Notes: generated by a model from the sequence alone, not told the origin. A DNA stretch of 64,000 nucleotides from an uncultured Candidatus Saccharibacteria bacterium (GCA_964468315.1 CAYXTA010000004.1:10976-74975); one strand, 5' to 3'; positions 12,991 to 62,710 are shown, counted from the stretch's first letter. Made by a program: numbers and translations.

Positions 12991-13149
12991 TTATTTTCTT
13001 TTATCCTCGTCATTGCCTTTAAAAATACCTGTAAGGTTTTTAAAAGCATCTACTATATTTTTTGTAAGCTCTGGAATTCTTTTTGACCCAAAAAGTAAAA
13101 CGATAACCACTGCTATTATTATTATTTCTCTTGTTCCTAATCCAAACAT
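12991..13149 (-). CDS. tatA: Twin-arginine translocase subunit TatA/E (52 aa).
   Basis: MFGLGTREIIIIAVVIVLLFGSKRIPELTKNIVDAFKNL..; canonical TatA N-terminus. Below the ORF-track length cutoff. Confidence 0.8.
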   Translation of the reverse strand: MFGLGTREIIIIAVVIVLLFGSKRIPELTKNIVDAFKNLTGIFKGNDEDKRK

Positions 13150-13188
13150 ATAATTATTTTAAGTTAAATTAATAAAGAAAACTTTTAT

Positions 13189-13338
13189 TTATTTCTTATC
13201 TGAACTTTTAAATGCACCAAACAATTCTCTTACTGCATCAGCAATAGATTTTGTAAGTTCTGGAATCTTTTTTGACCCAAAAAGTAAAACTATTATTAAA
13301 ACTATTATTAAAATTTCTTTTGTTCCTAATCCAAACAT
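13189..13338 (-). CDS. tatA: Twin-arginine translocase subunit TatA/E, second tandem copy (49 aa).
   Basis: MFGLGTKEILIIVLIIVLLFGSKKIPELTKSIADAVRELF.. Confidence 0.8.
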   Translation of the reverse strand: MFGLGTKEILIIVLIIVLLFGSKKIPELTKSIADAVRELFGAFKSSDKK

Positions 13339-13352
13339 ATTTTTATATTAAA

Positions 13353-14087
13353 TTAAGTTATTAAATTACGACCAACAATATTATTTTTTCTGTTAAACAA
13401 GACAGTGAGTTCATAAATTAATACCAACGGTGCTGCCATTAGTATTAATGATAAACCATCAGTGGGTGGAAGTAAAGAGACAATTACAAATATAACAGCG
13501 ATTGCATGTCTTCTTTTTGATTTTAGAAAAGCTACACTCATAATACCTACTTTTATTAAAAAAGTTATAACTAATGGAAAAATAAAAAGTAATCCAAGCA
13601 AAGTAGAAGTTAATACTATTTGATATACATATGAACTAATATCCCAATAATTTACAACGCCTAAATTTGTATTAACAACTGAAATTAATTTAATAGCGTA
13701 ATAAAGCATTATAGAACTATAAAGAAATCCTAAAATAAATAATCCTAAACCAAGAGGTAAAGAAAGTAAAAAAAAGTTCCTTTCTTTTTTAAGTAAAGCA
13801 GGTTTTAAAAATGAATAAAGAAAATATATAAAAACAGGAACAGTGATAACTGAAGCAAGGAAAAATCCTATACTCATAGCTAAATCAACCAATTGAAATG
13901 GAGAAGTCGTAGCAATAGTCACACCATCCATAGTAAGATATTTCAATAATAATCTAACAATAGGACCTATATTAAAAAAACTAATTACGAAAACTGTCGC
14001 GAAAATTTTTACTAAAATCAAAAGTCTTCTTCGTAATTCTTCGAAATAATTACCGTATCTGGAAATATTTTCTTGTAGATTGCTCAT
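13353..14087 (-). CDS. tatC: Twin-arginine translocase subunit TatC.
   Basis: N-terminal ..FEELRRRLLILV.. and a six-TM hydrophobic profile typical of TatC. Confidence 0.8.
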   Translation of the reverse strand: MSNLQENISRYGNYFEELRRRLLILVKIFATVFVISFFNIGPIVRLLLKYLTMDGVTIATTSPFQLVDLAMSIGFFLASVITVPVFIYFLYSFLKPALLKKERNFFLLSLPLGLGLFILGFLYSSIMLYYAIKLISVVNTNLGVVNYWDISSYVYQIVLTSTLLGLLFIFPLVITFLIKVGIMSVAFLKSKRRHAIAVIFVIVSLLPPTDGLSLILMAAPLVLIYELTVLFNRKNNIVGRNLIT

Positions 14088-14099: not shown

Positions 14100-15056
14100 T
14101 TATGCTATTTTTCTTTTATTCTTTTTCTTTATTACACTAACAACTGTTTCTGTGCTTGTTGGTGTTGTAGTATTTAAAGAATCATCTACTGGTATTTGAA
14201 TTATTGGATCAGTTGGAGTAACAGGATTTTCTACTACTGGAGTAGTATCAACTATTGCTGGATCTACTGGTGTAGGAGTTGGGTCAGTAATTACTGGATC
14301 TGTTGGAGTAACAGGATTTTCTACTACTGGAGTAGTATCAACTATTGCTGGATCTACTGGTGTAGGAGTTGGGTCAGTAATTACTGGATCTGTTGGAGGT
14401 TCAACAGGAGTAACTGTTGATACTTTACGATGTCTAGTAAGCCATTCAGCAACAGCATTTACTCCTTCTTCCCAAGAAGGATAATTTCTTGTATCTGTTC
14501 CTGTATTACCTACATTCCCTGGATTGTTTGTACTTACTGCTATCCCCAAAGTGCCAAAACGAGAGTCAAGTTCCATAATAGCAAGCATTAATCTGATATC
14601 TACCCTATAAATTTGTCCAGCATTCCAAACCATATGACCATTTAAAGGACTATCTGGATTTGCTTTTTTAATATAAGCTTCTATTTTATCAGAAGAATCC
14701 ATAACCCCCATTTTTTCTAAAATATTTTGTATTTTTATTTCATGATATGGATCTGTAGCATAAGGAGTTATATCGTATTCAAGTAAACATTTTGTAGCAT
14801 CATTTATAATACTTGGATTAAACGAAGCCTCTATACCATTTTTTACAACTTCAGCTTCTGAAAAAGTTGTTACAGCTGCTGTTTGTTCTATAGTAGAAAC
14901 CAATTTCAATTTACTTAAAGTATTTTGAACATCTAAAATCTCTGCATCAACTGCATTTATTCTTTCTAAATCTCCAGACTGAAAAGCTTGATCTTTTGCG
15001 AGAGCAAGACCATTTAATCTATTTGTAAGTAATTGTATAAGATAATCTATATTCAT
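14100..15056 (-). CDS. Putative peptidoglycan hydrolase: N-terminal coiled coil, lysozyme-like (glucosaminidase-family-like) core, C-terminal Pro/Thr-rich tandem repeat.
   Basis: RLMLAIMELDSRFGTLGIAVSTNNPGNVG..YPSWEEGVNAVAEWL resembles the PF01832-type motif. 90-nt tandem repeat at 14205-14400. Confidence 0.4.
   Translation of the reverse strand: MNIDYLIQLLTNRLNGLALAKDQAFQSGDLERINAVDAEILDVQNTLSKLKLVSTIEQTAAVTTFSEAEVVKNGIEASFNPSIINDATKCLLEYDITPYATDPYHEIKIQNILEKMGVMDSSDKIEAYIKKANPDSPLNGHMVWNAGQIYRVDIRLMLAIMELDSRFGTLGIAVSTNNPGNVGNTGTDTRNYPSWEEGVNAVAEWLTRHRKVSTVTPVEPPTDPVITDPTPTPVDPAIVDTTPVVENPVTPTDPVITDPTPTPVDPAIVDTTPVVENPVTPTDPIIQIPVDDSLNTTTPTSTETVVSVIKKKNKRKIA
14205..14400. repeat. Intragenic 90-nt tandem repeat (2.2 copies) encoding a PT-rich linker (VTPTDPVITDPTPTPVDPAIVDTTPVVENP).
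   Basis: Exact duplicate ggatctgttggagtaacaggattttctactactggagtagtatcaactattgctggatctactggtgtaggagttgggtcagtaattact. Confidence 0.85.
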
Positions 15057-15066: not shown

Positions 15067-17916
15067 TTAAAAATAAATCAACATTCTCCACATTTCCTGA
15101 CCAGTATGACGCATTATATAAAGATAATTTAAACCATCTGCTGTTTCTACTATTTCCATTCTATTACCAATGATTGCAGTAGAGTGTCCATAAGGAATCG
15201 TTCCAAGAGAACTAACAACATTTGTAGAAAAGTTATAAGAAAAAACTCTACCAGTGGCATCTTTATGGAAATAAATTGTATTATGACCATCATATGCATA
15301 CATAGAACCGGTAGTTAAAGTTTCTGATTGTGGTGAGAAGAAGTAACCATAAGTCCATCTAGCAGTTGTAATATCGTAAATATCTGCAGTGTTTGAAGCT
15401 CCACCTCTAGGAGAAAACATATATTTACCCTTAGTAGCTGTATCAGTATTATTCCAAATCCATAATAATTGTGTACCAGCACCTCTAGCTGGCACTCCTA
15501 AAATTGCATAAGTAGATGTAGTATCAGTAAGTGTAAGAGCAGCAGTTGTGAGGGCTGTAGCAGTATTTGAAGTTATTGTTCCCTCTTGACCTAAAGCCGT
15601 ACCTCCTGTGATACGTAATCTTTTACCAGCCCACATGTTTGTAGTCCAGTTCTTTGTAGTTGTTTCTGTAACAGGAGTAGTAGTACCACCGGCAGTTATC
15701 AAACCCCAACTATCAGCTATCTCATAATGAGTAGTAGCATCTGGAGTAAAAGATTGTGAAGCATAAGTAAGAGTTGTAGCTGTATTTGAAATTATCGAAA
15801 TAATTCCAGTAGCAAAACCTGTTCCTGATTCTATTCGAAGTTTATATCCTGCCCAACAGTTAGTAACCCAGTTCTTTGAAGAGTCTACCAAAGTAGTAGC
15901 TGATCCACCTGAAGCATGGCCCCGGTTTTGCATATTAGCCGGTTTAAATTGATTATCCGTACCAAAAACTTTAGAATCATAAATAGCATATTTTGAAGTA
16001 CCATTTACACCAGCAACTATTGTTGCAACAGTCAAAGTTGTTGCAGTATTAGCAGTAATCCACCTAATCTGTGCTGTTGGTGCTGTACCAGCAACTGACA
16101 AATGTACTAATTTACCTACATGTTCATTGGTAGTCCAAGCCTTTGATGAGTCCACAATTACTGTAGTAGATTGAGAATTACTTGCTGCCATAGATCCTGC
16201 AGCAGATGTGGCTATATCAAAAGTAGTAGTTGATCCAACACCTAAAATCGTGTGAGCTGCATTATAAGCACTATCAGAACAGCCCGAAAAAGTTACCGAG
16301 TTTCCTGTTTTAAACCAGTTTGCACTTGCTGTGGTTACCAAACATGTAGCACCAACAGAAGTTATTTCAATAGTACAACCAGATCCAGTACCACCAGTAG
16401 TAGCTTTACCTGTACCTGTCGTAAAACCAGTACCAGTACCAGATGCCACCAATTCTATCCCCGTAACTACTCCTGCAGAACCTGAAAAAGTAGTAGAAGT
16501 AACTATCACTCTAGCTGCTGTTCCACCCACTGAACATGTCAAAATATCTCCTAACAAATATCCCGTACCTCCTGCTGTTGGAGCAGGATTTACTGCTGTA
16601 ACCCCAGCGGCAATTCTAGCACCAGTAGTTACTCCAATCGGATTCCAGCCGTTCATTTTTACACCAATATTATTTACTACACCATCATCTAAACTATTCC
16701 CTTGCATCCAAAAGTCATTCTCTGGAGAATAGGCATATATAGCTGCAGCTGCACCACCAGAAATGAATGCTTTATCGTAATCCCCCCAAATTTCATAAGT
16801 TGAAGTTGCGTCTGGATTTGTATCCCAAGGTTTTACTACTGTAAACACTGTGGCTGTATTACAAACAATTCTTCTATGTTGTCCAATCCCTGTACCTCCT
16901 GTAATTAAGATACGATAGTTAGCATATCTATCTACAGTCATTGTCTGAGTAGAATCAGTAAGTGTCCGATCAGAACCCGCTGTAGCAGTAGAAGAAAGAA
17001 AAGCACTTCCTGTTTTTGCTAATCTTTCAAAAGTACAATCTGTACCCAAAGCAGCTTGAATTAAACCTTGGTTACAGGTTTTGATCTGCCATGAATCGTG
17101 AATAATATCATAATATTGTAAAGTGAAAAACGGGGCTGTAGTTGCAGAAGAAAGTAAGTATATCCCCCCTGTTGTAGTTGTAAAAAAAGAAGTATAGTCA
17201 GGAGTTACATCCCAAGTAGCTACAGTGTATGTACTTGAAATTATTTGGAAATGAGCTTGTGAACCAGCAGTGGTAACCGGTAAAGCATACGGGGCTACAG
17301 CAGCAAAGATCTGGTTGTTCCATGGATCGTGAGGTTGCAAGTTGGAATCTTGAATATAGAGAGTTGTTGCATCATTATATAAAATCTTTTTGTATTGAGT
17401 AGCATCAGTACCGAAAGTAATACCTACCATATATCCAGACCATTGATTAAATTTCCACTTTTTGGTCGAATCAGCAATATTGGCTGTAGTCGTGGAAGTA
17501 ATGACTCCCATGTCATGAATAGTTTCCCCTGTGTAGGTCAATACCCGCTCTTGACCAGAACCAGTTCCTTGTATTATTTTTATAGTTTTACCATTTAAAG
17601 TCGGTCCACGAAGTCCTGGTATAGTAATCGATGTGGAAGTAGCACTTAAAACTCTTCCATGAAAACCACGAAAACCTGTATATCTTAGTGAGAGAGTTGT
17701 GACTGGTGTCGTAATAGGAGTTGCAAGCTGTTGCCATGAGTCAGCATAAGTATCGTATCTATAAAAAGCTGCAGTAGACATGTAGTAAATAAACCTAGCG
17801 CCACCATCATCCGCTGTGGCCATACCAGAAAGAGCAACTGTTGCAGTAGGTGCAAAACGACACCATTCCCAAACCGGTAAATCTACTTGTGGTTTTAAAT
17901 TATTTGTTACAGACAT
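15067..17916 (-). CDS. Giant (949 aa) Thr/Gly/Ser-rich repeat protein with no N-terminal signal peptide. Recurring W..N.W.G..L.I..GTG.GQ modules and a C-terminal beta-propeller-like region.
   Basis: Repeated motifs TKKWKFNQWSGYMVGITFGTD, SSKAWTTNEHVGKLVHL, SSKNWVTNCWAGYKLRIESGTG, TTKNWTTNMWAGKRLRITGGTALGQ. Confidence 0.55.
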   Translation of the reverse strand: MSVTNNLKPQVDLPVWEWCRFAPTATVALSGMATADDGGARFIYYMSTAAFYRYDTYADSWQQLATPITTPVTTLSLRYTGFRGFHGRVLSATSTSITIPGLRGPTLNGKTIKIIQGTGSGQERVLTYTGETIHDMGVITSTTTANIADSTKKWKFNQWSGYMVGITFGTDATQYKKILYNDATTLYIQDSNLQPHDPWNNQIFAAVAPYALPVTTAGSQAHFQIISSTYTVATWDVTPDYTSFFTTTTGGIYLLSSATTAPFFTLQYYDIIHDSWQIKTCNQGLIQAALGTDCTFERLAKTGSAFLSSTATAGSDRTLTDSTQTMTVDRYANYRILITGGTGIGQHRRIVCNTATVFTVVKPWDTNPDATSTYEIWGDYDKAFISGGAAAAIYAYSPENDFWMQGNSLDDGVVNNIGVKMNGWNPIGVTTGARIAAGVTAVNPAPTAGGTGYLLGDILTCSVGGTAARVIVTSTTFSGSAGVVTGIELVASGTGTGFTTGTGKATTGGTGSGCTIEITSVGATCLVTTASANWFKTGNSVTFSGCSDSAYNAAHTILGVGSTTTFDIATSAAGSMAASNSQSTTVIVDSSKAWTTNEHVGKLVHLSVAGTAPTAQIRWITANTATTLTVATIVAGVNGTSKYAIYDSKVFGTDNQFKPANMQNRGHASGGSATTLVDSSKNWVTNCWAGYKLRIESGTGFATGIISIISNTATTLTYASQSFTPDATTHYEIADSWGLITAGGTTTPVTETTTKNWTTNMWAGKRLRITGGTALGQEGTITSNTATALTTAALTLTDTTSTYAILGVPARGAGTQLLWIWNNTDTATKGKYMFSPRGGASNTADIYDITTARWTYGYFFSPQSETLTTGSMYAYDGHNTIYFHKDATGRVFSYNFSTNVVSSLGTIPYGHSTAIIGNRMEIVETADGLNYLYIMRHTGQEMWRMLIYF

Positions 17917-17922: not shown

Positions 17923-18675
17923 TTATGAAAATGCTAAATTATTTCTAATACCATTCGCCGAAGCGTTTCTTGCTGTATCTATATATAAATATCTACCGTC
18001 AACACCTCCTAATGCAACTAAGTTTGTGGCAGATGTCAGAGTACCAACAGTAGTAATAGTACCTAAAGTCAAAGATCCAGAAATAGAATCGATTGTAACT
18101 TTTTGTCTTTGAGCAGAATCAACTACAGCTAAGGAGTCAACTTGCTTAACCAATCTTCTAAGCAACATCGCACTGTCATCTGTAGCAGGATTGATTTGAG
18201 TGTTTGTAGTATCTTTTAGAGTAACGCTACTTGCTCCACCAGAAGAAGATGTAAGAAGATTATTACTACCATCAAAAGTAAGGTTTGCTGTTTTTGCTTG
18301 AATAAGAGCAAGAGTTGCTTCAGTAGCAGGATCTATACGTGCATTAGAAGAATCTTTTAAACCAACAACATTTGAAGTCGGTGTACTACCAGCCACATAA
18401 GCATCAGCTTGATTTGGAAATAATGCTGATGCTGCAATACCAAGACCAGCGACTCCAGCAAACTTTAAAAATAACCTTTTATTATCATCTACTATAACTT
18501 TATTTTTCTTTATTTCTGTTTTTACTTTTACAATACTTTCTTCTTTTTGTTTATTTAAAATAATTTGCTTCTTTTGTACAGAAATAGAATCAACCTTTGG
18601 ACGCGAAATAGTACTTTTTTTTAAAGTACTACCAGAAACAAGTTTCAAATGATTTTTGAATTCACTCATATACAA
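17923..18675 (-). CDS. Thr/Ser-rich secreted protein with an internal Tat-like motif (NKRLFLKFAGVAGLGIAASALFPNQADA) and two ~40-aa repeats (LKDSSNARIDPATEA.. / LKDTTNTQINPATDD..).
   Basis: KR-LFLK followed by a hydrophobic h-region and an A-x-A cleavage site. A long Lys-rich N-terminal extension precedes it. Confidence 0.45.
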   Translation of the reverse strand: MYMSEFKNHLKLVSGSTLKKSTISRPKVDSISVQKKQIILNKQKEESIVKVKTEIKKNKVIVDDNKRLFLKFAGVAGLGIAASALFPNQADAYVAGSTPTSNVVGLKDSSNARIDPATEATLALIQAKTANLTFDGSNNLLTSSSGGASSVTLKDTTNTQINPATDDSAMLLRRLVKQVDSLAVVDSAQRQKVTIDSISGSLTLGTITTVGTLTSATNLVALGGVDGRYLYIDTARNASANGIRNNLAFS

Positions 18676-18762: not shown

Positions 18763-20292
18763 TTAAGCGAAACCAGGGAAAAAATCTATTTTTATATTAT
18801 TACTAGATACACCCATGGATTTTAAAGTATTTTCAAATGCATAAACCATACTGTGTGGACCTGATATGTAAAATATTTTATTTAAATAATCTGGAACTTC
18901 TCTTTTTATCATTTCTGCATCAATAAAACCTTTTTGCATAGACAAATCAGACAAAATTTCATTTTTTTCAGTGATATTGTAAATAGTTTTTATTCCTAAT
19001 TCATTTTTTGCTCTATCAAAAACATCTTTATAAGCAATGTCAGATATTTTTTTATTTGAATAAAAGATAGTTATGTTTCTTTTTTCTTTTTTATCCAATA
19101 AATATTGAACCATGCTACGAAAAGGGGTCACTCCAATACCTCCAGCTATAAATACTAATCCTTGTTTTTCTTTTTTAGGTAATACGAAATCTCCAGCCAA
19201 TTGAGAAACAATTATTTCTTCTCCTACTGGTAAAGCAAGTAGATGATTTTTAAAACTACTTGGTTCTGGGTAAAATTTTACCCCTAAATGTATCTCGGGT
19301 TCTGTCGGTGAAGATGCTATTGTAAAATATCTTCTATTACCTCTCGTATCTGGGTCACGATGTTTCAAAGTCCATTCCATATATTGCCCCGGTCTGAAAG
19401 AAAAGTTCGTATTTTTTGTAAAAATAAAATCATAAGTATCATTTGCTATTTTCACTTGTTCTTTTAATTTTAAGAAAAGTTTTTGTTTAGGACTCACTAA
19501 ATAAGCAAAGATATTTCCCAACAAAAGTGCTATTTCAGGAGTTAAATAAAATTGACCTATATGTACATCTGGGGCAACTAAAAAACCAACTAAAACACCG
19601 AATACTACTCGAGGCCATTTTGTAGTAGGTGCTGTTAATGGTTCTGTAAGCATTATAAAAGCAAAAAATAGAAAGGCGGAATCTTTGATAGTTCTCAATA
19701 AAACAGTCGCAACATCAGAACCTTTTAATATTGTAAAAACAGTAATTGTAATAAAAGCACTCAAAATAAAACTAAATATTAGATCCCCTTTACGAATTTT
19801 CCTTACAACTAAAATACCTCCAATAATAACAAAAGGAAGCATGTTTGTAGTACCTATCCACCAACTTGCACTCTGATTTATTGTAATAGCAGTCAATGCT
19901 ACAGCAAAAGCAGCTGGATTAAAAAGATGTTTTCTCCCAATAGCAAAAATATATTTTGAGGCCATAGCCCAAACTGATGCCCAAAAAGCAAAAGGTAAGA
20001 AATCTGTATAAACACCACCTTGTATAGGAGTTATTAAGAAAAATAAAATTAAAGCAGTTATATATACTGACTCTACGTTTGTAGGTGCTTCAAAAAATTT
20101 TGAAAAAACAATATTTGTTACCCAAGAAATAAATAAAATTATCAATAAAGAAACAATAAGGTCGACAGGTGTGTATGGAAGAAGTTTAAAAAAAGACAAA
20201 CAAAAAGCAGCAACAAAAAAGAACATCAGAATATATAATACTATTCTGTACATTGTTATTTTATTCAAAAAATTGTCTATATATTTAATCAT
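18763..20292 (-). CDS. Membrane oxidoreductase fusion: N-terminal RnfD/NqrB-like polytopic domain plus C-terminal FNR-like FAD/NAD(P)H-binding domain.
   Basis: GRKHLFNPAAFAVAL (the RnfD/NqrB HxFNPAL motif). RPGQYMEWT...RRYFTIASSP (the FAD-binding RxYS/T motif). FIAGGIGVTPF (NAD(P)-binding GGxGxxP motif). C-terminal ISGPHSMV. Confidence 0.65.
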   Translation of the reverse strand: MIKYIDNFLNKITMYRIVLYILMFFFVAAFCLSFFKLLPYTPVDLIVSLLIILFISWVTNIVFSKFFEAPTNVESVYITALILFFLITPIQGGVYTDFLPFAFWASVWAMASKYIFAIGRKHLFNPAAFAVALTAITINQSASWWIGTTNMLPFVIIGGILVVRKIRKGDLIFSFILSAFITITVFTILKGSDVATVLLRTIKDSAFLFFAFIMLTEPLTAPTTKWPRVVFGVLVGFLVAPDVHIGQFYLTPEIALLLGNIFAYLVSPKQKLFLKLKEQVKIANDTYDFIFTKNTNFSFRPGQYMEWTLKHRDPDTRGNRRYFTIASSPTEPEIHLGVKFYPEPSSFKNHLLALPVGEEIIVSQLAGDFVLPKKEKQGLVFIAGGIGVTPFRSMVQYLLDKKEKRNITIFYSNKKISDIAYKDVFDRAKNELGIKTIYNITEKNEILSDLSMQKGFIDAEMIKREVPDYLNKIFYISGPHSMVYAFENTLKSMGVSSNNIKIDFFPGFA

Positions 20293-20300
20293 TTTTATTT

Positions 20301-21050
20301 TTATATAACTGTATATTTGTTAAATCCTGTAGTCATTGTAGCTATACCATTTTTATCTATCATGTATCCTTCGAAATCATTTAAATTTTCAATAAAAAAA
20401 ATACCTTCTTTACCCATAGCATAAGTTGCAGTTGCTAAACGATCAGCTTCAAAAATATTTGGACCTATTACAGTAAAACTAACGATTTCATCTAATTTAT
20501 CAGTTTTATTTTTTGGATTATAAATATGTTGCCCACGAACATAATTACCTGAAGTCGCTATTCCATTATCATCCAAATACACTTTTTTTACAACTTCCCT
20601 CTTTTTATTAAAAGGGTTTTGAATTCCTATACACCATTTTTCATTTTTATTATTTTTACCAGAAACTTGAATATCTCCACCTGCTTCTACATAAAAATTT
20701 TTTATTCCTTTATTTTTTAAAATCTGACTAGCATTAAAAATGGACCAACCCTTAACTAAACCAGAAGGATCATAGCTTCCATTTGGTGTTAAAATATCAA
20801 AATAACCATTTGTAATTTTTTTTGTTTCTTCCGAGAGCTTAAAAACTAATTTCATATCATCACTAAAATTATTTTCTGTTATTTCTTTTTTATTAATTGC
20901 TGTTATTTCACTATCATCTTTATATGTACTAAATTTTTTATCGACATATCTAAAATAATCAAAAACTTCTTCAAAGAGTTCAGGTTTTGATTCATCGTCA
21001 TGAATTTCAACAATAATAGGAGTACCCATTATGATTTCTATTTTTTTCAT
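20301..21050 (-). CDS. apbE: FAD:protein FMN transferase (ApbE family), short form.
   Basis: IMGTPIIVEI, YDPSGLVKGW...VEAGGDIQV, IATSGNYVRGQHIYNP, EADRLATATYAMG. Confidence 0.8.
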   Translation of the reverse strand: MKKIEIIMGTPIIVEIHDDESKPELFEEVFDYFRYVDKKFSTYKDDSEITAINKKEITENNFSDDMKLVFKLSEETKKITNGYFDILTPNGSYDPSGLVKGWSIFNASQILKNKGIKNFYVEAGGDIQVSGKNNKNEKWCIGIQNPFNKKREVVKKVYLDDNGIATSGNYVRGQHIYNPKNKTDKLDEIVSFTVIGPNIFEADRLATATYAMGKEGIFFIENLNDFEGYMIDKNGIATMTTGFNKYTVI

Positions 21051-21055
21051 TTATT

Positions 21056-21595
21056 TTATGTTCTAGCTTGAGAAAGTGCTGAAGAAAGTGATTCAATAAA
21101 TGCTTGACTTGTATATGATGCGCTAGCGTAGCCATCTACATTTGAATCTTGAGCTACCAGTGCTTCACTAATAAGATAAGGCATTGCTTTTGCATTTAAA
21201 TTTCTAGAAGTTGACCTTGAATTTGGATAACTTAAAAATTGAACATCAGCTATTTTACCACCTGAAACAATAACCTTTACTTGCACATAACCATAAGAAG
21301 CATCAATAGAATCACCTGTATAGCTTCCATTTTTATATTTACCAGTATTTATAACTGGTGGAGGTACTATTACTGGTTTTGGATTTATTATAACTGGATT
21401 TGTTTGAGTAGTTGTTGTGTTTGAGGGTTTTGGTTCAGTTGTAATTAAATTATATTCAGGAAGAGAAAGTGCTACTTTTGGTTTATTTGGTTCTGGTGTT
21501 AAAACAACAGGAGCTGTCGTACCCAAAATACGTATATGTAAAATATACGCACCGAAACCAAATATTAAAAATGATGATAGTATTACTTTCTTCAT
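21056..21595 (-). CDS. Membrane-anchored FMN-binding-domain (FMN_bind) protein, the presumptive ApbE flavinylation substrate.
   Basis: N-terminal TM helix. Pro/Thr linker. C-terminal YVQVKVIVSGGKIADVQFL...VDGYASASYTSQAFIESL matches the FMN_bind pattern. Confidence 0.65.
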   Translation of the reverse strand: MKKVILSSFLIFGFGAYILHIRILGTTAPVVLTPEPNKPKVALSLPEYNLITTEPKPSNTTTTQTNPVIINPKPVIVPPPVINTGKYKNGSYTGDSIDASYGYVQVKVIVSGGKIADVQFLSYPNSRSTSRNLNAKAMPYLISEALVAQDSNVDGYASASYTSQAFIESLSSALSQART

Positions 21596-21604: not shown

Positions 21605-22519
21605 TTAATCGTCATCTTCCTCTATTTCATTATGATATGAAGTGGATTTATGAGTACCATAATCATCTTCTTCTATATCATCAGAATCATCTTCATCATC
21701 GTCTGATTCAATATCACTCTTAATAACATTTGAAAGCATTAATAATTTAGTTGAATTTAATGTATTAATAGCTAAATTAAATTTATCAACAGAACCATTA
21801 TAATCAGAAGTATTTAATAAAATTTTACCTTCTTCTATAGATTTTTCAGTGGAAGAAAGTTTATTATCAATTTGAGTTTGTATGTTTACCGATAATTTGA
21901 TTTTGTCTTTTTGATATGACAATTTAACTGTTTTTAATAAATTTTCAGCATCTTTTTGTTTTTGAGAAGCTGTAGATGAATCTTCTATTGGTTGATTTGT
22001 ACTTACTTGTATTTTTGTATCTTGATTTACTGTTTGACTAGAATTTTGTATAACATCAACTAATTTTTTTGTTTCTTGTTTTGTTATTTCATTTGTATTT
22101 TCATTTGAAGATACATTATCAAAAACATTTTTATAAGCTTGAAGTGAAGCTTGCATTCTAATGTTTAAATCCGAAGAATTAACAGATTGATTTTTTACTA
22201 AAGCTAATTCTTTTACTTTAACATTAAAATCTTCAACTTGATTTTTTATTTTATTTTCTAATTCTAACCTAAAAGCTTCGTCTAATTTGTTTTCAGAAAT
22301 TAATTTTTTGGCTTCTTCTAAACGACGCTCTACTAATCTTTCTTTCCATTCTGTTTTTTCTTCTTTTGTAAGAGCAAAAACACCTGCTACTGGTTCATTT
22401 ACAAAAATTTTAATACCATATAACAAATTTCCAGGTACAGATTTTTCTGCAAATGCTGAAGTAGTACCTAATGATAAAATAACTATAATTACAATAATTT
22501 CTTTAATAAAATTTTTCAT
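21605..22519 (-). CDS. Secreted coiled-coil protein with a strongly acidic C-terminal tail.
   Basis: Signal peptide ..TTSAFA. C-terminus DDDEDDSDDIEEDDY..EIEEDDD. Confidence 0.45.
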   Translation of the reverse strand: MKNFIKEIIVIIVILSLGTTSAFAEKSVPGNLLYGIKIFVNEPVAGVFALTKEEKTEWKERLVERRLEEAKKLISENKLDEAFRLELENKIKNQVEDFNVKVKELALVKNQSVNSSDLNIRMQASLQAYKNVFDNVSSNENTNEITKQETKKLVDVIQNSSQTVNQDTKIQVSTNQPIEDSSTASQKQKDAENLLKTVKLSYQKDKIKLSVNIQTQIDNKLSSTEKSIEEGKILLNTSDYNGSVDKFNLAINTLNSTKLLMLSNVIKSDIESDDDEDDSDDIEEDDYGTHKSTSYHNEIEEDDD

Positions 22520-22557
22520 ATTAGCATTATACCATACCTAAATAAAACAAATGAAAA

Positions 22558-23700
22558 CTATCTTATAGATTTAGCAACAGTTTTTACTACATTTTTATCG
22601 AAAATACTTGGGATTATATTTTCCCTTGTTGGGTTTTTTACCAATTTTGCAAGAGCGACAGATGCTTTCACAAGCATTGAGTCTGTAATATCTCTAACTT
22701 TATTATCAAGAGCTCCTCGGAAAATACCAGGGAAACCAAGTGCATTATTTAATTGATTTGGAAAATCAGATCTACCAGTAGCCACAATGAATGCACCAGA
22801 AGATTTTGCAATATCGGGCATTATTTCAGGCACAGGGTTTGCAAGAGCAAAAATTATTGGTTTTGTATTCATTATTTTTATAAATTCAGGTTTTAAAGCT
22901 CCAGCTTTTGATACACCAATAAATACATCTGCATTCTTTAAAACTTCTTCAAGACCTCCTGTTATTTTTTGTTTATTTGTTTTTTCAGCTAATTTTATTT
23001 TTTCATCATTCATACTTTCTCTACCTTTATAAATTGCTCCTAAACTATCCACAACAATAATCTCTGTAAATCCATATTCAAGAAGCATTTTTGTAATGGC
23101 AAGACCAGCAGCACCAGCACCATTTATAACAATTTTTATATTTTTATTTTTTGTTCCACGAACTTTTAAAGCATTTATAATACCTGAAAGGACAACCATT
23201 GCAGTGCCATGTTGATCATCATGCATTATTGGTATATTTAATTCTTTTTTTAATCTTTCTTCAATTTCAAAACATCTAGGAGCTGAAATATCTTCTAAAT
23301 TTATTGCCCCAAAAGATGGAGCAATAGCTTTAATGGCTTGTATTATTTCTTCTGTATTTTGAGTAGATAAAACAATAGGAAAAGCATTTATACCTGCAAA
23401 ACTTTGAAATATTGCAGCTTTTCCTTCCATAACAGGCAAAGCTCCTTCTGGACCAATATTACCAAGACCCAAAACAGCTGAACCATCAGAAATAACAGCA
23501 ACCATATTACCTCTTGATGTATATAAATTAGTTTCTTTTGGATTTTGAGCAAGATAACTAGAAACTCCTCCAACACCAGGTGTGTAAAGCAAACTCAAAT
23601 CGTTTTTATTTTTAATTTTGTATTTAGAAAGGATTTCTATTTTACCTTTAAGTTTTTTGTGAAGTTTTAAAGACTCAGAAACAATATTTGTTTTTTTCAT
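22558..23700 (-). CDS. maeB: NAD(P)-dependent malic enzyme (malate dehydrogenase, oxaloacetate-decarboxylating), short form.
   Basis: LLYTPGVGGVS, NLYTSRGNMVAVISDGSAVLGLGNIGPEGALPVMEGKAAIFQSFAGI, VINGAGAAGLAI. Confidence 0.9.
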   Translation of the reverse strand: MKKTNIVSESLKLHKKLKGKIEILSKYKIKNKNDLSLLYTPGVGGVSSYLAQNPKETNLYTSRGNMVAVISDGSAVLGLGNIGPEGALPVMEGKAAIFQSFAGINAFPIVLSTQNTEEIIQAIKAIAPSFGAINLEDISAPRCFEIEERLKKELNIPIMHDDQHGTAMVVLSGIINALKVRGTKNKNIKIVINGAGAAGLAITKMLLEYGFTEIIVVDSLGAIYKGRESMNDEKIKLAEKTNKQKITGGLEEVLKNADVFIGVSKAGALKPEFIKIMNTKPIIFALANPVPEIMPDIAKSSGAFIVATGRSDFPNQLNNALGFPGIFRGALDNKVRDITDSMLVKASVALAKLVKNPTRENIIPSIFDKNVVKTVAKSIR

Positions 23701-23701
23701 A

Positions 23702-23920
23702 TTATGAATTTAATTTCTTTATCTGATCTTGATATTTTCTCATAACTTCCATAGAAGCAGACATTTGATCTTGACCACTTTTGATCTTTTCTTGAACCTC
23801 CTCAGCAATTTTTTTAAAAAGTTCTGGATCTTTCTCCATCATAGATAAAACCATATCTATTTGCTCTTCTGGTACACCTTGGCCCTTTAACATTTTCTTC
23901 AATAAAAAATTTTTAAACAT
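23702..23920 (-). CDS. Small hypothetical protein (72 aa).
   Basis: ORF tightly packed between maeB and ndh. No recognisable motif. Confidence 0.35.
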   Translation of the reverse strand: MFKNFLLKKMLKGQGVPEEQIDMVLSMMEKDPELFKKIAEEVQEKIKSGQDQMSASMEVMRKYQDQIKKLNS

Positions 23921-23964
23921 GTTTTTGATTATAAATTAATAAATAATAAATGCAATTTACAAAA

Positions 23965-25158
23965 TTATTTTTCTTTACGATATTTCCAACCTTCAAGATA
24001 CAAACTAAAGAATTTTTTCCAAGATAAAATATCAGCAAAAAACATAAAATCTATCATATGGCGAACAGCATATGCAAAAAATCCATACAAAACAAAAGAA
24101 CCACTAGATAAAACTCCCCAAGATTCACCAATAGGAATAGCTAGACCATTTTTCTTTGGAATATATTTATCTATTTTTTTGTTTTTTAATTTTTGAGTAA
24201 TTATCTTTGCAACATATTTTCCATCATAAATAGCTGTCTGAGCGAGACCAGAATATTCTGTAGCAGCAGCATCACCTATAACATAAATATCTTCAAATCC
24301 TTTTGCTTGCAAATATTCATCGACTTCTACTCTTTTGTTTTTTGCAAAAGTTAATCCTGTGATTTTAGAAAAAAGTCTATTTATTTGTGTTCCAGCTGTC
24401 CATATAACAGTTTTTGCCTGAAAAGACATATCTTTCATATATACTTGCTCCAATTCTTCTTTCATTAAAAAACGATTAAGGTAAACATTTACTCCTAATT
24501 CTCTTAAACGATTAAGGATTTTACTAGAAACTTTTTCAGGTAAAGAAGGAATAAGTCTTCCGTTTGATTCTATTAAATCAATAGTTATAAAAGATGGATC
24601 GACTTTATTTACTTTTGCCAAATGTTTTAAATGCACAGACAAATCACCAGCAACTTCTACTCCAGAAGGACCACCACCAACAATAACAACGTGAAAATGA
24701 GAAACAAATTCACTTTGTGTTGGATGTTCATGTTCTTCAAACAAATTTGCAATATGAGTTTTTAAACGAAGAGCTTCATTTATAGATTTAAAACCAAGGG
24801 AAAAATCTTCTATACCTGGAAGATTGAAATATGTAGTTTCACTACCAAGAGCCATTATCAAAATATCGTATTTATATACTGAACCAGCTTCAGATGTTGC
24901 TGTTTTATCAGTTAAATTTATATCAATGATTTTATCTATATCTACTTCTACTCTTTTAGGTAAAATTTCTTCAAGGGGTACACAAACTTCAATAGGAGAA
25001 GCTCCTGTTACTATACGATACAAAGCTGGATAATATTCAAAATAACTCTTGTTTGATACGAGTTTTATCTCTAAATTAGGATTTTTTTTAGCCAATTCTC
25101 TAGCAGATATAATACCCCCAAATCCCCCGCCAATTATTAAAACTCTTTTAGGTTGCAT
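23965..25158 (-). CDS. ndh: Type II NADH dehydrogenase (NDH-2) with a hydrophobic/amphipathic C-terminal extension.
   Basis: VLIIGGGFGGII (FAD), VVIVGGGPSGVEVAG (NADH), YVIGDAA motifs. C-terminal FVLYGFFAYAVRHMIDFMFFADILSW. Confidence 0.85.
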   Translation of the reverse strand: MQPKRVLIIGGGFGGIISARELAKKNPNLEIKLVSNKSYFEYYPALYRIVTGASPIEVCVPLEEILPKRVEVDIDKIIDINLTDKTATSEAGSVYKYDILIMALGSETTYFNLPGIEDFSLGFKSINEALRLKTHIANLFEEHEHPTQSEFVSHFHVVIVGGGPSGVEVAGDLSVHLKHLAKVNKVDPSFITIDLIESNGRLIPSLPEKVSSKILNRLRELGVNVYLNRFLMKEELEQVYMKDMSFQAKTVIWTAGTQINRLFSKITGLTFAKNKRVEVDEYLQAKGFEDIYVIGDAAATEYSGLAQTAIYDGKYVAKIITQKLKNKKIDKYIPKKNGLAIPIGESWGVLSSGSFVLYGFFAYAVRHMIDFMFFADILSWKKFFSLYLEGWKYRKEK

Positions 25159-25196: not shown

Positions 25197-26642
25197 TCAT
25201 TCAGCAAGTATTTCAAAATCATTACCTTCTACGTTTTGACTAGGATTTATCTTTTTTCTTAAAAAATATACAGATAATATACCAATAATTAACAATAACA
25301 CCATAGCAAAAATAATAAATATTAAATTTTTTGAATTATTATTTATTTCTGTATTTACGACAGAAGAAGTAATATCTTCTGGATTAATCATATTGTTTAC
25401 ATTTAAATCTTTAATATTTTCTATGTTATTTGAAATATTTTTTACACCAGGATTTTTATATGCAATACTATTTGTTTTTATTTTATTAGATACACCATAA
25501 GTAAATACATTTTCAGAAGTAGATGAAATGAGTTTTAAATTATTAGAATCGTCTATTGTAAAATTAGTTATTTTAGAAGAAATTTTCATTTTGCTTTTTG
25601 ATTGTAAAATAGTATTTTTGGGAAAAACAAAAGTTTTATTGTTACTTTGTAAGCTCCATTTAGATATATCAACATCGTAACTAGAACTATTATAAAGCTC
25701 CACAAAGAAGTCCTGACTATTACCAACAGAAGAAATAACAACATCATTTGATACTATTTTTATAATCATTGAGTCTATTGCTTCTGGATTTTCTGCATAA
25801 TAATTATCATAAAATTCTAAACTTACATTATATTCACCAGGATAAAAATATGTATGAGCAAATTTTTGAGACTGATTTAAATATATTTCTTTTGAATCTC
25901 CGTCACCAAAATTCCAATAATATTTTCCATAAAGCAAAGCTTCATTTTTATGTCCTGTTGTATTTCCACTAAAAGTAATAGGTATACCAACAAAGCCATT
26001 ATTTTGTGCAGAAATATGGGTTTTTATTTTATATTCTATGGTTTTTGTTTTTTCTGATGGCGCAGAAGTCGTCCCAGTTGAACTATCTGAACTTGTATTA
26101 GTATTATCGGAAGAATTGTTTGAATTAATATTAGTTGAACTAGAATTAACTTGTCCAGGAGTTGGTGTAGCAGAAACCCATGATCCATTTATTTTTTGGA
26201 GAGAATTTCCATCACCACTTGCTCCTTGAGATGAAGTATAAGCAACAGAAGACATTGGAGAATTTTTATCACCAGTATTTATTTCAATTTTCCCTGCATC
26301 ATTTGGTAAAGAAAAACTGCTGGTAAAAATATTACCAGCAGTTCCAAATCTATCTGTATAATTTGTGATTGCACTACTTTGAACGATCACACCGTATTCA
26401 CCATTGTGCAACACCGATGCACCAGAAGAATTATTTATACTATGATTTGATGTCGAATTATCGACAAAAAGTTTTAACGACGTAAGATCCACATCCGAAC
26501 CATTATTAACTACTTCAACAAAATCAATATCTCCACCATCTAAATCATAATTTATTTCATTAATAGAAACATCAGCAAAAACAAAATTAAACTTAAGCAA
26601 AAAGACAATAATAACTAAAAACAAGGGTAATTTTTTATTCAT
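25197..26642 (-). CDS. Surface protein with two lamin-tail-domain (LTD)-like modules; signal peptide and C-terminal TM anchor.
   Basis: VSINEINYDLDGGDIDFVEVVNNGSDVDLTSLKL and VVISSVGNSQDFFVELYNSSSYDVDISKWSL (LTD-like). C-terminal LIFIIFAMVLLLIIGILSVYFL. Confidence 0.55.
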   Translation of the reverse strand: MNKKLPLFLVIIVFLLKFNFVFADVSINEINYDLDGGDIDFVEVVNNGSDVDLTSLKLFVDNSTSNHSINNSSGASVLHNGEYGVIVQSSAITNYTDRFGTAGNIFTSSFSLPNDAGKIEINTGDKNSPMSSVAYTSSQGASGDGNSLQKINGSWVSATPTPGQVNSSSTNINSNNSSDNTNTSSDSSTGTTSAPSEKTKTIEYKIKTHISAQNNGFVGIPITFSGNTTGHKNEALLYGKYYWNFGDGDSKEIYLNQSQKFAHTYFYPGEYNVSLEFYDNYYAENPEAIDSMIIKIVSNDVVISSVGNSQDFFVELYNSSSYDVDISKWSLQSNNKTFVFPKNTILQSKSKMKISSKITNFTIDDSNNLKLISSTSENVFTYGVSNKIKTNSIAYKNPGVKNISNNIENIKDLNVNNMINPEDITSSVVNTEINNNSKNLIFIIFAMVLLLIIGILSVYFLRKKINPSQNVEGNDFEILAE

Positions 26643-46961: not shown

Positions 46962-46967
46962 ATATAT

Positions 46968-47304
46968 AGGTGTTAGGTAGTTGAGTTCACTTTTAGTGGA
47001 TTAGGAAAGTCCGAACACATACCAGTTTAGTCTGGAAAAGTAATGGGTAATACCCATATGTAGTAATACATAGGTGCGAACAGAGACGTCTTGATTTGAA
47101 AATTTCAAGATATCCTAAAGCAATTTAGGATAAGCTTTTATAGTAATATAGAAGTTGAAACGGCTAAATCCTTACTCGTGTGCAAGATCGTGTCCTGAGC
47201 GAAAGCGAAGGAAGAATCGCTTGAGCTTTAGAGTAATTTAAAGCCTAGATAAATAACTATCATTCCGCAAGGAAAACAAAATTCGGCTTATAGACACCTA
47301 AAAC
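46968..47304 (+). ncRNA. rnpB: RNase P RNA (bacterial type A).
   Basis: CR-I GGAAAGTCCGAACAC. CR-V ACAAAATTCGGCTTATAGACACC. 5'/3' P1 complementarity (gtgttaggt / acctaaaac). Dedicated promoter and terminator. Confidence 0.8.
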
Positions 47305-47312
47305 AAAATGAG

Positions 47313-53335: not shown

Positions 53336-53559
53336 GTGCTGTTCTTTGTTTTGTTTCGTTCTACTAATTTTATTATTTTATTTGTCTTTCCAAACTGTCA
53401 TCTTGTTTTATAGATACAAGTAAACTCCATCTTTTTTAGCTTGTGATGTTCAAGCATTGTGTGCTCAATTGAGGCACACAACACCGACTCAATAAGTCCG
53501 GTCGGAACGGGTCCGACGCTCATCTTCTGATAAATCAGAAGATGGGACGTTTTTCAAAT

Positions 53560-55088
53560 TGAATTATTCCACGACCAGCTTCCGCTAGCCGTGCCTTGTT
53601 ACGACTTAGTCCCTGTCACCGAGCTTACCTTAGGCCATCCTTATGGACAGACTTTGGGTACTCCCGGCTCCCTTGACTTGACGGGCGGTGAGTACAAGAC
53701 TTGAGAACGTATTCACCGCAGTATAGCTGACCTGCGATTACTAGCAATTCCGGCTTCATGGGGTCGAGTTGCAGCCCCCAATCCGAACTGGCGCCTTCTT
53801 TATTACGATTAGCTCAGGGTTACCCCGTCGCGACGCGTTGTAAAGGCGATTGTATTATGTGTGTGGCCCCGGATATCAGAGGGTCATGCTGACCTGGCGT
53901 TATCCTCGCCTTCCTCCCCCCATTATTCTCACGAAATCGGCACGGAAATTTCCGCACTTTTTTCACGAAGATAATGGGGGGCAGTCTCGCCTGACACTTG
54001 TAACAGACAACGAGGGTTGCGTTCGTTACCCCACTTAAGGGAACAATTCAAACCACGAACTGACGACGGCCATGCAACACCTGCCTAACTGCCCGTGAAG
54101 GCTACTAAGGTTTCCCAAAGTATTCAGCTAGGTTTCAAACCCGGGTAAGGTTTTTCGTTTACCATCGAATTGAACCACATAATCCACTGCTTGTGCAAGT
54201 CCCCGTCTATTCCTTTGAGTTTTAACCTTGCGGTCGTACTACCCAGGCGCTTCTCTTAACGCGTTAGCTTCGCCTCTCAGAGGGTCGATACTCCGAAAAG
54301 CTAGTGAAGATCGTTTAGGGCGTGGACTACTGGGGTATCTAATCCCATTCGCTACCCACGCTTTCGTGTTTGAGTGTCAGGAATACGCTAGTGCACTGCC
54401 TTCGCTTTTGGTGTTCCTCATGATATCAACGGATTTCACCCCTACTCCATGAGTTCCATGCACCCCTCGTATCCTCAAGTTTAGCCGTTTCCTCCGCATG
54501 CCCCCGGTTAAGCCGAAGAATTTAACAGAAGACTAACTAAACCACCTACACACCCTTTACGCCCAGTAATTCCGGATAACGCTTGAGGCCTCTGTATTAC
54601 CGCTACTGCTGGCACAGAGTTTGTAGCCTCTTATTCGTGGGGTACTATCAATAAACTTTCTCCCCCATAAAAGAATTTTACGTGCCGAAGCACTTCATCA
54701 TTCACGCGGCGTCGCTCGATCAGACTTTCGTCCATTGTCGAATATTCTCGGCTGCAGCCACCCGTAGGTGTATGGACCGTGTCTCAGTTCCATCGGTGGG
54801 GGTCAGGCTCTCACCTCCCCTAGACGTCATTGCCTTGGTAGGCTTTTACCCTACCAACTAGCTGATATCCCGCAGACCATTCCCCAAGCAATAAATTTTT
54901 ACCGTTCACCTATTTATCAGTGAGGGACCATCGGGTGTTAGCTCCGCTTTCGCGGAATTATTCCCGACTTGGGGGTATGTTATCTACGTGTTACTACCTC
55001 GTTCGCCATGGGTCTAAACCCATTCGACTTGCATGCCTTATCCACGCCGCCAGCGTTCATCCTGAGCTAGGATCAAACTCTAAAATAA
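53560..55088 (-). rRNA. rrs: 16S rRNA gene, stand-alone; no 23S, 5S or tRNA downstream. The 3' tail lacks CCUCC, helix h40 is expanded, and the 530 loop is divergent.
   Basis: 5' AGAGTTTGATCCTAGCTCAGGATGAACGCTGGCGGCGTG (rc of 55030-55082). 3' AAGTCGTAACAAGG plus helix 45 with a GGAA loop (rc of 53570-53600). Internal conserved blocks throughout. Confidence 0.9.
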
Positions 55089-56281: not shown

Positions 56282-56360
56282 CACTTTTCTTGAAGGGATT
56301 CCACTCCGTGGAGTCCCTTTAGTATTTACTTATTACGTGTTTACATAGTCTTATAAAATA

Positions 56361-56882: not shown

Positions 56883-56887
56883 AGCCC

Positions 56888-57793: not shown

Positions 57794-57797
57794 GGTT

Positions 57798-62706: not shown

Positions 62707-62710
62707 ACAT

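Follow-up and report, generated by a model that had tools for sequence, protein, structure and literature searches.

How could a block of three genes carry electrons from cytoplasmic NAD(P)H to the outside of the cell, and how would its apparently exported subunit receive a flavin from a transferase that has no export signal? Both questions are raised by positions 18763-21595 (minus strand) of a 64,000-nucleotide stretch of DNA, here called the window (GCA_964468315.1 CAYXTA010000004.1:10976-74975), deposited under an uncultured Candidatus Saccharibacteria bacterium. The source is a bacterium of low guanine-plus-cytosine (GC) content from the candidate phyla radiation (CPR), and its closest relatives among those listed are labelled Nomurabacteria or Paceibacterota. 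The three genes encode an FMN_bind protein, a flavin adenine dinucleotide (FAD):protein flavin mononucleotide (FMN) transferase of the ApbE family, and a single polypeptide in which an RnfD/NqrB-like membrane domain is fused to a domain like that of ferredoxin-NADP reductase (FNR). The architecture, the clade and the proposed function of this trio have already been published. The locus is therefore a rediscovery, in which a previous reading of the sequence alone, made by a model, took one wrong step in the wiring by placing a covalent flavin in the membrane domain.

The three genes and the class to which they belong

The genes are arranged as follows, with lengths given for the encoded open reading frames (ORFs).

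21056-21595, minus strand: gene for the FMN_bind subunit (NqrC/RnfG-like), ORF of 179 residues, PF04205
20301-21050, minus strand: gene for the ApbE-family FAD:protein FMN transferase, short and signal-less, ORF of 249 residues, PF02424
18763-20292, minus strand: gene for the RnfD/NqrB-like::FNR-like fusion, ORF of 509 residues, PF03116 and PF00175

In the ORF listing of the window, 5 nucleotides separate FMN_bind from ApbE and 8 nucleotides separate ApbE from the fusion gene. The sequence-only reading had placed three minus-strand ORFs at exactly these coordinates, and the peptides that it quoted (VDGYASASYTSQAF, GRKHLFNPAAFAVAL, RRYFTIASSP and GGIGVTPF) were all present in the translations. 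It was also right about the identities of the components, as judged by Pfam matches, which we counted only above the gathering thresholds. The FMN_bind ORF matched PF04205 with 26.2 bits (cut-off 22) over residues 102-174; the ApbE ORF matched PF02424 with 137 bits; and the fusion ORF matched PF03116 (NQR2_RnfD_RnfE) in its N-terminal half with 44 bits (cut-off 27.7; residues 146-266) and PF00175 (NAD_binding_1) in its C-terminal half with 54 bits (cut-off 22; residues 381-485). When the fusion protein was compared with NCBIfam, all matches were below threshold, to many FNR-family reductases and to RnfD/NqrB, and it therefore belongs to no named equivalog.

A flavinylation-associated gene cluster whose central protein has PF03116 at the N terminus and an NqrF-like PF00175 at the C terminus was described as 'NQR/RNF-like' by Méheust et al. 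(2021; eLife, PMC8238504), mainly from Actinobacteria and CPR. Here both domains occurred in that order in one protein, and the fusion gene directly adjoined ApbE with FMN_bind next to it, well within the five-gene distance used to define the cluster. The trio almost certainly belongs to this published class. A complex of the same class, from Ktedonobacter racemifer, was modelled with AlphaFold-multimer by Huang et al. (2024; mSystems, PMC10979944/PMC11334425), who proposed that the membrane subunit has a pocket for a non-covalent flavin, which the flavin of the NqrC/RnfG-like subunit would sample. The idea of a two-protein, one-way conduit, put forward in the sequence-only reading, agrees with the published model (PMC8238504, PMC11334425).

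Conservation of the block

The fusion protein had 7,863 database homologues at an expect value (E) <= 1e-5, and the best 120 of these were CPR proteins of 495-538 residues labelled 'RnfABCDGE ... subunit D' or 'ferredoxin-NADP reductase'. Its N-terminal domain alone gave 352 clusters (50% identity) at E <= 1e-30, mostly of about 490-515 residues, and relatives were encoded in at least 465 species when one genome was scanned for each, distributed over many CPR classes, Chloroflexota (including Dictyobacter) and Actinomycetota. The fusion had been called unusual for a reduced genome, a view that must be given up, as it is widespread across CPR lineages and its occurrence in CPR is already in the literature. 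The published survey of NQR/RNF-like systems counted 127 clusters (Méheust et al. 2021, PMC8238504); this count is low because the pipeline required a SignalP or lipobox prediction in the cluster and kept only those with one.

As a synteny sample we fetched the loci of 80 species and examined the neighbours within 6 kb. An FMN_bind gene was found in 72 loci and an ApbE gene in 69; almost without exception the genes ran FMN_bind, ApbE, fusion on the same strand, and the distance from the FMN_bind stop to the ApbE start ranged from −4 to +33 nucleotides but was mostly 1-5. Because the same genes recur in most of these loci, the arrangement is far beyond chance.

The database label 'RnfABCDGE type electron transport complex subunit D', as well as the Pfam and structural homology to RnfD/NqrB, might suggest that the trio is left over from, or a sub-module of, a canonical Rnf or Na+-NQR complex, partnered with RnfA/B/C/E or NqrA/D/E/F encoded elsewhere. 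However, phmmer searches with E. coli RsxA, RsxB, RsxC and RsxE detected no homologue among the ORFs of the 64-kb window or within 6 kb in the 80 species loci. Since the block recurs across phyla without other Rnf subunits, we concluded that it is a self-contained conserved unit and no fragment of Rnf or Nqr. An NAD(P)H module fused directly to the membrane domain would, moreover, make RnfC or NqrF redundant, and CPR genomes, to our knowledge, generally lack both Rnf and Nqr. That the trio works as part of such a larger complex is extremely improbable.

The membrane domain and its lost flavinylation loop

The features of the N-terminal half of the fusion protein are listed below.

19489-20292, minus strand: RnfD/NqrB-like membrane domain with 10 helices, residues 1-268 (PF03116, profile match, AlphaFold2 model)
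19858-19872, minus strand: predicted outer-loop motif S-A-S-W-W, residues 141-145, in place of the long flavinylated loop of RnfD/NqrB (WW in all 80 loci)
19639-19647, minus strand: intramembrane T-E-P motif, residues 216-218 (aligned with T-D-P of RnfD, NqrB and RsxD; invariant in the family alignment)

This half matched RnfD in the PDB with E 3e-4 as a single sequence and with E 8e-5 when a family profile was used (8ahx_D). For a separate AlphaFold2 model of residues 1-272, which had a predicted local distance difference test score (pLDDT) of 77 and a predicted template modelling score (pTM) of 0.78, the sole significant PDB matches were RnfD of Acetobacterium, Azotobacter and Clostridium and NqrB of Vibrio cholerae. 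Template modelling (TM) scores for these matches, normalised to the query, were 0.57-0.71, and the next matches had E > 0.1.

To assign the topology, we took the helices of the model as loop boundaries and counted the mean number of Lys and Arg residues per loop across homologous sequences. The GRKH loop, the RK loop and the linker preceding the FNR domain contained 2.1, 1.8 and 4.8 per sequence, respectively; whereas the intervening loops contained 0.04-0.5, with the exception of the long helix-containing loop at residues 191-206, which contained 1.2. This concentration of Lys and Arg in alternate loops argues that the FNR domain lies inside and the short NQSASWW loop outside, and it fits a predicted 10-helix protein with both ends in the cytoplasm.

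In the wiring first suggested for the locus, electrons would pass from NAD(P)H to FAD, to a covalent FMN on the membrane domain and then to the exported FMN protein, with ApbE installing both covalent flavins. The conserved S-A-[ST]-W-W in the predicted outer loop, situated close to where the RnfD/NqrB loop begins, could be taken as a site for the additional flavin, and the letters S-A-S are common to this loop and to the FMN_bind motif of the window. We therefore compared the loop with those of flavinylated homologues. In E. coli RsxD, 108 residues separate NPA (position 122) from the GG that opens the next helix (position 230), and they include D-G-I-S-Q-A-T187, in which Thr187 is the flavinylated threonine. 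In the query, NPA125 and GG158 are 33 residues apart, making the loop 75 residues shorter than that of RsxD. The HMMER alignment showed the same contraction, with residues 176-274 of V. cholerae NqrB, including Thr236, placed opposite residues 93-148 of the query. The comparison is based on these motif anchors and HMMER alignments because an hhalign comparison of the family profile with RsxD as a single sequence covered the C-terminal half only.

The remaining loop, NQSASWW, had no canonical D-x-x-[ST]-G-A-[ST] motif, lacking both the Asp at −6 and the [ST]-G, and the residue preceding WW, which is Ser or Thr in most homologues, was Asn in 5 of the 80. With the Thr-bearing segment (RsxD Thr187, NqrB Thr236) deleted, the Asp and [ST]-G missing and the candidate acceptor replaced by Asn in several homologues, a covalent FMN in the membrane domain is unsupported. 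Huang et al. (2024; PMC10979944, PMC11334425) independently noted that this class does not conserve the flavinylation site of NqrB/RnfD, in agreement with the loop loss described here. The wiring with two covalent flavins is consequently very unlikely. For the same reasons we did not adopt SASWW as a vestigial flavinylation site, although it is conserved and predicted to lie outside; the WW pair may line the flavin pocket that Huang et al. proposed.

The predicted cytoplasmic domain

The C-terminal half of the fusion protein contains the following features.

18766-19485, minus strand: cytoplasmic FNR-like domain, predicted to bind FAD and NAD(P)H, residues 270-509 (PDB sequence and Foldseek matches)
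19309-19335, minus strand: RRYFTIASS motif (R-x-[YF]-[ST]), with R320, R321, T324, A326, S327 and S328 invariant in 24 homologues
19123-19143, minus strand: GGIGVTP motif (G-x-G-x-x-P, nicotinamide-nucleotide binding signature), with G384, G385, I386, G387, T389 and P390 invariant, inside the PF00175 match

In a sequence search of the PDB, residues 270-507 matched flavohemoglobin (E 9e-10) and the FAD domain of NqrF (E 1e-8), the latter alignment being confined to the FAD/NAD part (chain residues 242-408). In an AlphaFold2 model of the full-length fusion (mean pLDDT 83, pTM 0.75), the C-terminal half resembled complete two-domain FNR modules, namely Fre, FPR, the NqrF FAD domain, flavohemoglobin and the dehydrogenase domain of SpNOX; Foldseek TM-scores normalised to the target were 0.7-0.84 for Fre, FPR and the NqrF FAD domain. 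The R-x-[YF]-[ST] sequence within RRYFTIASS is what we take to be the FAD-binding signature of the FNR family. Because the sequence and structure searches both returned FNR modules, the C-terminal domain has the NAD(P)H/FAD oxidoreductase fold on which the sequence-only reading had staked its proposal, and the choice of NAD(P)H as the probable cytoplasmic donor is supported.

The FMN_bind subunit

The subunit predicted to lie at the other end of the path is composed of four recognizable parts.

21533-21586, minus strand: N-terminal hydrophobic membrane anchor, residues 4-21, after MKK (sequence; pattern in 72 homologues)
21311-21523, minus strand: low-complexity stalk, residues 25-95, 49% Pro, Thr, Ser or Asn
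21074-21292, minus strand: FMN_bind domain, residues 102-174 (PF04205; aligned with homologues and with E. coli RsxG)
21116-21136, minus strand: flavinylation motif D-G-Y-A-S-A-S, residues 154-160, with Ser160 the predicted FMN acceptor (alignment)

The 72 FMN_bind homologues from the sampled loci had the same overall layout, with [KR]K followed by about 19 hydrophobic residues and then a low-complexity stalk of variable length. In the window copy, MKK plus an 18-residue hydrophobic segment could score either as a signal peptide or as a signal-anchor. By the positive-inside rule and by homology to RnfG and NqrC the anchor would be oriented N-in and C-out, and a stalk rich in Pro, Thr and Ser would be typical of extracellular linkers. 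Taken together, the anchor, the stalk and the homology to periplasmic RnfG/NqrC make an extracellular location of the FMN_bind domain the most likely one, and the sequence-only reading had also put it there.

The motif DGYASAS, located about 20 residues from the C terminus, stood position by position opposite the D-x-x-[ST]-G-A-[ST] motif of the homologues and opposite DQFTGAT in RsxG. It keeps the Asp, the Ala and the acceptor Ser and deviates at −3 (Ala) and −2 (Ser). A 96%-identical relative (locus L082) has the canonical DAVSGAS; when L082 5033-5237 was compared with the window, the substitutions fell in two patches of the C-terminal domain without frameshifts, and the rest of the gene was nearly identical. 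The exact FMN_bind protein of the window was found on 4 contigs. This copy is probably still a flavinylation substrate.

A transferase without an export signal

One segment of the transferase is listed for its catalytic residue.

20514-20534, minus strand: ApbE segment GQHIYNP, with its His aligned with V. cholerae His257 (6nxi alignment, vrgqHIynP against VRYSHIIDP)

His257 of V. cholerae ApbE is catalytic (PMC12052999). The ApbE ORF of the window matched ApbE structures in the PDB with a best E of 8.5e-18 and also kept the ADxLAT segment; by these sequence features it appears to be a member of the ApbE family with its catalytic residues intact. Relative to V. cholerae ApbE (6nxi) it is without about 50 internal residues, with query positions 86 to 93 corresponding to chain positions 97 to 151. 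The protein begins MKKIEIIMGTP, directly at the start of the mature domain, and no longer ORF is possible because this one opens at the first start codon after the upstream stop. No hydrophobic N-terminal segment, signal peptide or lipobox was present here or in any of 63 full-length homologues from the clusters. Database relatives of this ApbE number more than 3,300, and the best 120 listed were mostly 240-260 residues long. The cluster enzyme constitutes a distinct short subfamily, and this holds for the CPR, Chloroflexota and Actinomycetota copies (the window and loci L002-L080). In the publications that we consulted we found no discussion of this short signal-less form.

The sequence-only reading had assumed flavinylation by ApbE outside the cytoplasm. 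Its identification of the enzyme stands, but it overlooked the missing signal peptide, which complicates flavinylation on the outside. ApbE is typically a periplasmic lipoprotein (review, PMC12052999), and the target of a K. pneumoniae ApbE that has no signal is cytoplasmic, a behaviour termed 'localization-controlled specificity' (Bertsova 2014, as reported in PMC12052999). In the accepted model, a transferase that lacks a signal does not fit with a substrate that is apparently exported.

One way to remove this inconsistency is to suppose that the module faces inward, the FMN_bind domain being cytoplasmic (with an N-out anchor or peripheral) and flavinylated there by the signal-less ApbE, so that there would be no transmembrane conduit. 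The absence of an export signal from 63 of 63 full-length ApbE homologues and the localisation-controlled specificity reported in PMC12052999 (Bertsova 2014) would suit this arrangement. So would the charges flanking the FMN_bind anchor, where Lys and Arg favour the N side only modestly (about +2, compared with +1 on the C side). Nevertheless, [KR]K followed by a hydrophobic segment is a classic N-in signal-anchor, the Pro/Thr/Ser stalk is of the extracellular type, the homologous RnfG and NqrC are periplasmic, and on the RnfD-like domain the cytoplasmic face is already taken up by the fused FNR domain. In addition, the subunit is docked at an extracytosolic flavin pocket in the AlphaFold-multimer model of Huang et al. 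(2024, PMC11334425). We regard an inward-facing module as decidedly unlikely and continue with an extracytoplasmic FMN_bind domain.

Export of a pre-flavinylated, folded subunit by the twin-arginine translocation (Tat) system was rejected as a general route, as RR occurred in only 2 of the 72 FMN_bind N-termini. The others had KK, RK, KR, NK or QK, even in the GC-rich Chloroflexota; the window copy has K-K, and a twin-arginine S/T-R-R-x-F-L-K sequence is absent from it ahead of the hydrophobic segment. No TatC was encoded near the cluster in the other loci. In the window, a Tat system is encoded at 12991-14087 (minus strand), about 5 kb from the trio; it comprises two TatA-like genes (12991-13149 and 13189-13338, each with a product that starts MFGLG...LLFGSKK/RIPEL) and tatC (13353-14087, minus strand; PF00902, E 8e-36), and no substrate of the RR (twin-arginine) type was seen in the window.

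A natural fusion of FMN_bind with ApbE was likewise rejected, the 444-residue ORF in locus L029 being an assembly frameshift artefact. In that locus (L029 3951-6017, from a metagenome-assembled genome of Chloroflexia), two tandem FMN_bind paralogues lie upstream of ApbE, and the second is split by the apparent frameshift. Programmed frameshifting or readthrough from FMN_bind into ApbE was rejected as well: the junction gaps of −4 to +33 nucleotides fall in all frames and have no slippery site in common, which points to ordinary translational coupling.

The options left are cytoplasmic flavinylation before translocation, an unrecognised export route, a cytoplasmic FMN_bind domain, and another ApbE gene located elsewhere in the genome. 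ApbE enzymes accept tags of 7 residues and perform best on a tag at a protein terminus (PMC12052999). We tentatively raise the possibility that the transferase is cytoplasmic throughout the family and that the FMN_bind motif is flavinylated before or during translocation, or else that the enzyme is exported by a route not yet recognised. Either case would break with the rule confining ApbE to targets in its own compartment, and cytoplasmic flavinylation would spare cofactor-scavenging cells the export of FAD.

The proposed electron path

We propose that NAD(P)H would be oxidised on a non-covalent FAD in the cytoplasmic FNR-like domain of the fusion protein, and that electrons would then cross the membrane through the 10-helix RnfD/NqrB-like domain by way of a non-covalent flavin or flavin pocket, which the domain would have to use because the covalent-FMN loop of its ancestors has been lost. 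At the outer face they would pass to an FMN held as a phosphoester on Ser160, within the D-x-x-x-x-A-S motif of the anchored and stalked FMN_bind subunit, after flavinylation presumably by the adjacent ApbE, and from Ser160-FMN to an extracytosolic acceptor. In effect, the RnfC-RnfD-RnfG branch (or NqrF-NqrB-NqrC) would be cut down to two polypeptides operating in one direction. Candidate roles include NAD(P)+ regeneration, iron reduction and the supply of an outer reductase; NAD+ regeneration on an external acceptor, as suggested in the sequence-only reading, is plausible.

Several points weigh against this path. Flavinylation of the exported subunit is left unexplained, because the ApbE is signal-less and enzymes of its kind are reported to act only in their own compartment. 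The window motif is non-canonical, with A-S instead of [ST]-G, and a change of the Gly to Ala roughly halves flavinylation of a model protein (review, PMC12052999). Clustering of the neighbouring genes in the 80 loci found no conserved acceptor or partner gene, and no experimental characterisation of any NQR/RNF-like member was found in the searchable literature. On balance we lean towards the mechanism as proposed; class membership and mechanism, taken together, are likely.

A variant of the same path would couple electron flow to export of Na+ or H+, making the fusion and its partner a minimal two-subunit redox pump for organisms without a respiratory chain. NqrB and RnfD have been implicated in ion translocation in Nqr and Rnf (PMC10643135). 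The acidic residue of T-[DE]-P, which is E217 here and aligns with T-D-P of NqrB, is invariant, and the fold is weakly similar to those of urea and ammonium channels. In Nqr and Rnf, however, coupling uses NqrD/E or RnfA/E and large multi-subunit movements, which are not present here. In addition, the C-terminal acidic residue of NqrB, presumably D397, has no counterpart in the fusion protein, where the sequence is S-P-K. A pumping function is unlikely, and we retain a path that carries electrons only.

Neighbouring genes and other features of the window

Among the neighbours in the 80 loci, the families loosely associated with the trio encode a MacB-like ABC ATPase (20 loci), a histidine kinase (15 loci) and a sigma-factor-like protein (12 loci; assigned by our own reading of the sequence). 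Upstream of the trio in the window and co-directional with it (21605-25158, minus strand) are genes for a DUF5667-like secreted protein whose tail is acidic (21605-22519), a malic enzyme whose best match was NADP-type (22558-23700, minus strand), a 72-residue protein (23702-23920) and, four genes upstream, a homologue of NDH-2 that has a hydrophobic tail at its C terminus (23965-25158, minus strand) and matched NDH-2 structures in the PDB with E values down to 3e-39. The arrangement with malic enzyme and NDH-2 recurred only in L082, and neither gene was found in any of the 80 loci. A DUF5667-like neighbour was present in 4 of the 80 loci, and loci L001, L002 and L004 share a closely similar trio, with fusion proteins 70-73% identical. 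Of the sigma-70-like promoter matches in the region, the best (25193-25165) lies immediately upstream of NDH-2; taken as a whole, the search for promoters and terminators was uninformative, giving fewer promoter-like sites than in shuffled sequences and no terminators.

Genes for putative surface proteins flank the module. On one side are a glucosaminidase-like protein with Pro/Thr repeats (14100-15056, minus strand), a 949-residue Thr/Gly-rich protein with no Pfam match (15067-17916, minus strand) and a 250-residue protein with a transmembrane segment about 85 residues from its N terminus (17923-18675, minus strand). On the other side is an LTD/PKD-domain protein with a C-terminal anchor (25197-26642, minus strand).

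The window also encodes glycolysis and pentose-phosphate genes, SecA, SecDF and DnaE. A class A bacterial RNase P RNA was found at 46965-47306 (plus strand) with 105.9 bits against a gathering score of 100, suggesting that it is divergent. Across 53557-64000 the GC content is about 0.40-0.50, up from about 0.28-0.35; the step coincides exactly with a complete 16S rRNA gene (53557-55088, minus strand), and the high values persist through the SecD/SecF, epimerase, sugar-transferase, GT4 and pilin-like genes. This step may be a chimeric assembly join or real compositional heterogeneity; it lies 32 kb from the trio and has no effect on the findings made there. Neither a 23S rRNA gene nor a tRNA gene was detected in the window.

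Significance

CPR bacteria (Patescibacteria) are generally thought to be without respiratory chains, and a two-protein route out of the cell is for that reason potentially important to them. A self-contained connection from NAD(P)H to the exterior could be among the few means that these cells have to dispose of reductant, to reduce iron or to feed redox enzymes at the outer surface. The case for the module was made in the literature in 2021 and 2024, and the present locus adds a clean and compact example. What we add is that the family is much larger than reported, that the loop deletion can be quantified, and that the dedicated transferase is universally short and signal-less, which raises the question of how an exported subunit is flavinylated by a transferase without an export signal. 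As the module is conserved in hundreds of species, it deserves biochemical characterisation.

Comparison with known systems

The NQR/RNF-like system has the same fusion protein, the same NqrC/RnfG-like FMN_bind partner and an adjacent ApbE, and its taxonomic range (CPR, Actinobacteria, and Chloroflexota such as Ktedonobacter) is shared as well. It also shows the same loss of the membrane-domain flavinylation site, and electrons would likewise run one way, from NAD(P)H to an acceptor outside the cytosol, so that nothing essential is different. The differences are in number, at least 465 species here against 127 published clusters, and in the deviant DGYASAS motif of the window.

With Rnf (7ZC6, 8AHX, 9ERI) the trio has in common the RnfD fold, an RnfG-like partner with a C-terminal flavinylation motif and a cytoplasmic NAD(H) module. 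RnfA, RnfB, RnfC and RnfE were not found in the window or the 80 loci, and RnfD's flavinylated loop has been lost. Here the module for NAD(P)H is of the FNR type and fused in cis, whereas RnfC is a flavoprotein with Fe-S clusters; the trio also has no ferredoxin site, and electrons are presumed to flow through it in one direction, outward.

In comparison with Na+-NQR (7XK3, 8A1T), the FNR domain corresponds to the FAD/NADH domain of NqrF, the membrane domain to NqrB and the partner to NqrC. Pfam scans of the neighbouring genes gave no other Nqr-type match (NqrA, NqrD or NqrE). The fusion is without the 2Fe-2S domain of NqrF, its FNR domain following directly on the last transmembrane helix; the site equivalent to Thr236 is missing and no quinone site is evident. 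In the published model for the NQR/RNF-like complex the NqrC-like subunit directly contacts the NqrB-like one, unlike the situation in Nqr (Huang et al. 2024, PMC11334425).

The extracellular electron transfer (EET) system of Listeria (Ndh2, EetA/EetB, PplA, FmnB) likewise has an FMN_bind protein outside the cytosol to which an ApbE-family enzyme attaches the flavin, and the ultimate donor of the system is NADH. The transmembrane step, however, would be carried out here by the RnfD-like::FNR protein instead of Ndh2, quinone and EetA/B, and FmnB is a secreted lipoprotein, in contrast to the signal-less ApbE of the trio. The NDH-2 homologue of the window, four genes upstream, had no equivalent within 6 kb in the 80 loci, and Pfam scans of the neighbouring genes gave no match to EetA/B-like or quinone-synthesis families.

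The NOX/MsrQ-like proteins, in which a ferric-reductase domain is joined to FNR (SpNOX, 8QQ1/8QTA), follow the same logic of a polytopic membrane domain with a cytoplasmic FNR domain sending electrons outward, and the SpNOX dehydrogenase domain is matched structurally by the FNR domain of the fusion. In place of their di-haem ferric-reductase domain, the protein described here has a flavin-binding RnfD/NqrB fold with no haem-ligating His pairs. Finally, a transmembrane-rubredoxin-FNR protein has been described from Vampirococcus (Absconditabacteria, also CPR), for which NAD(P)+ regeneration or generation of proton-motive force was proposed (PMC8080830); the present fusion, which dispenses with the rubredoxin domain, is analogous to it as a CPR protein joining a membrane domain to an FNR module.

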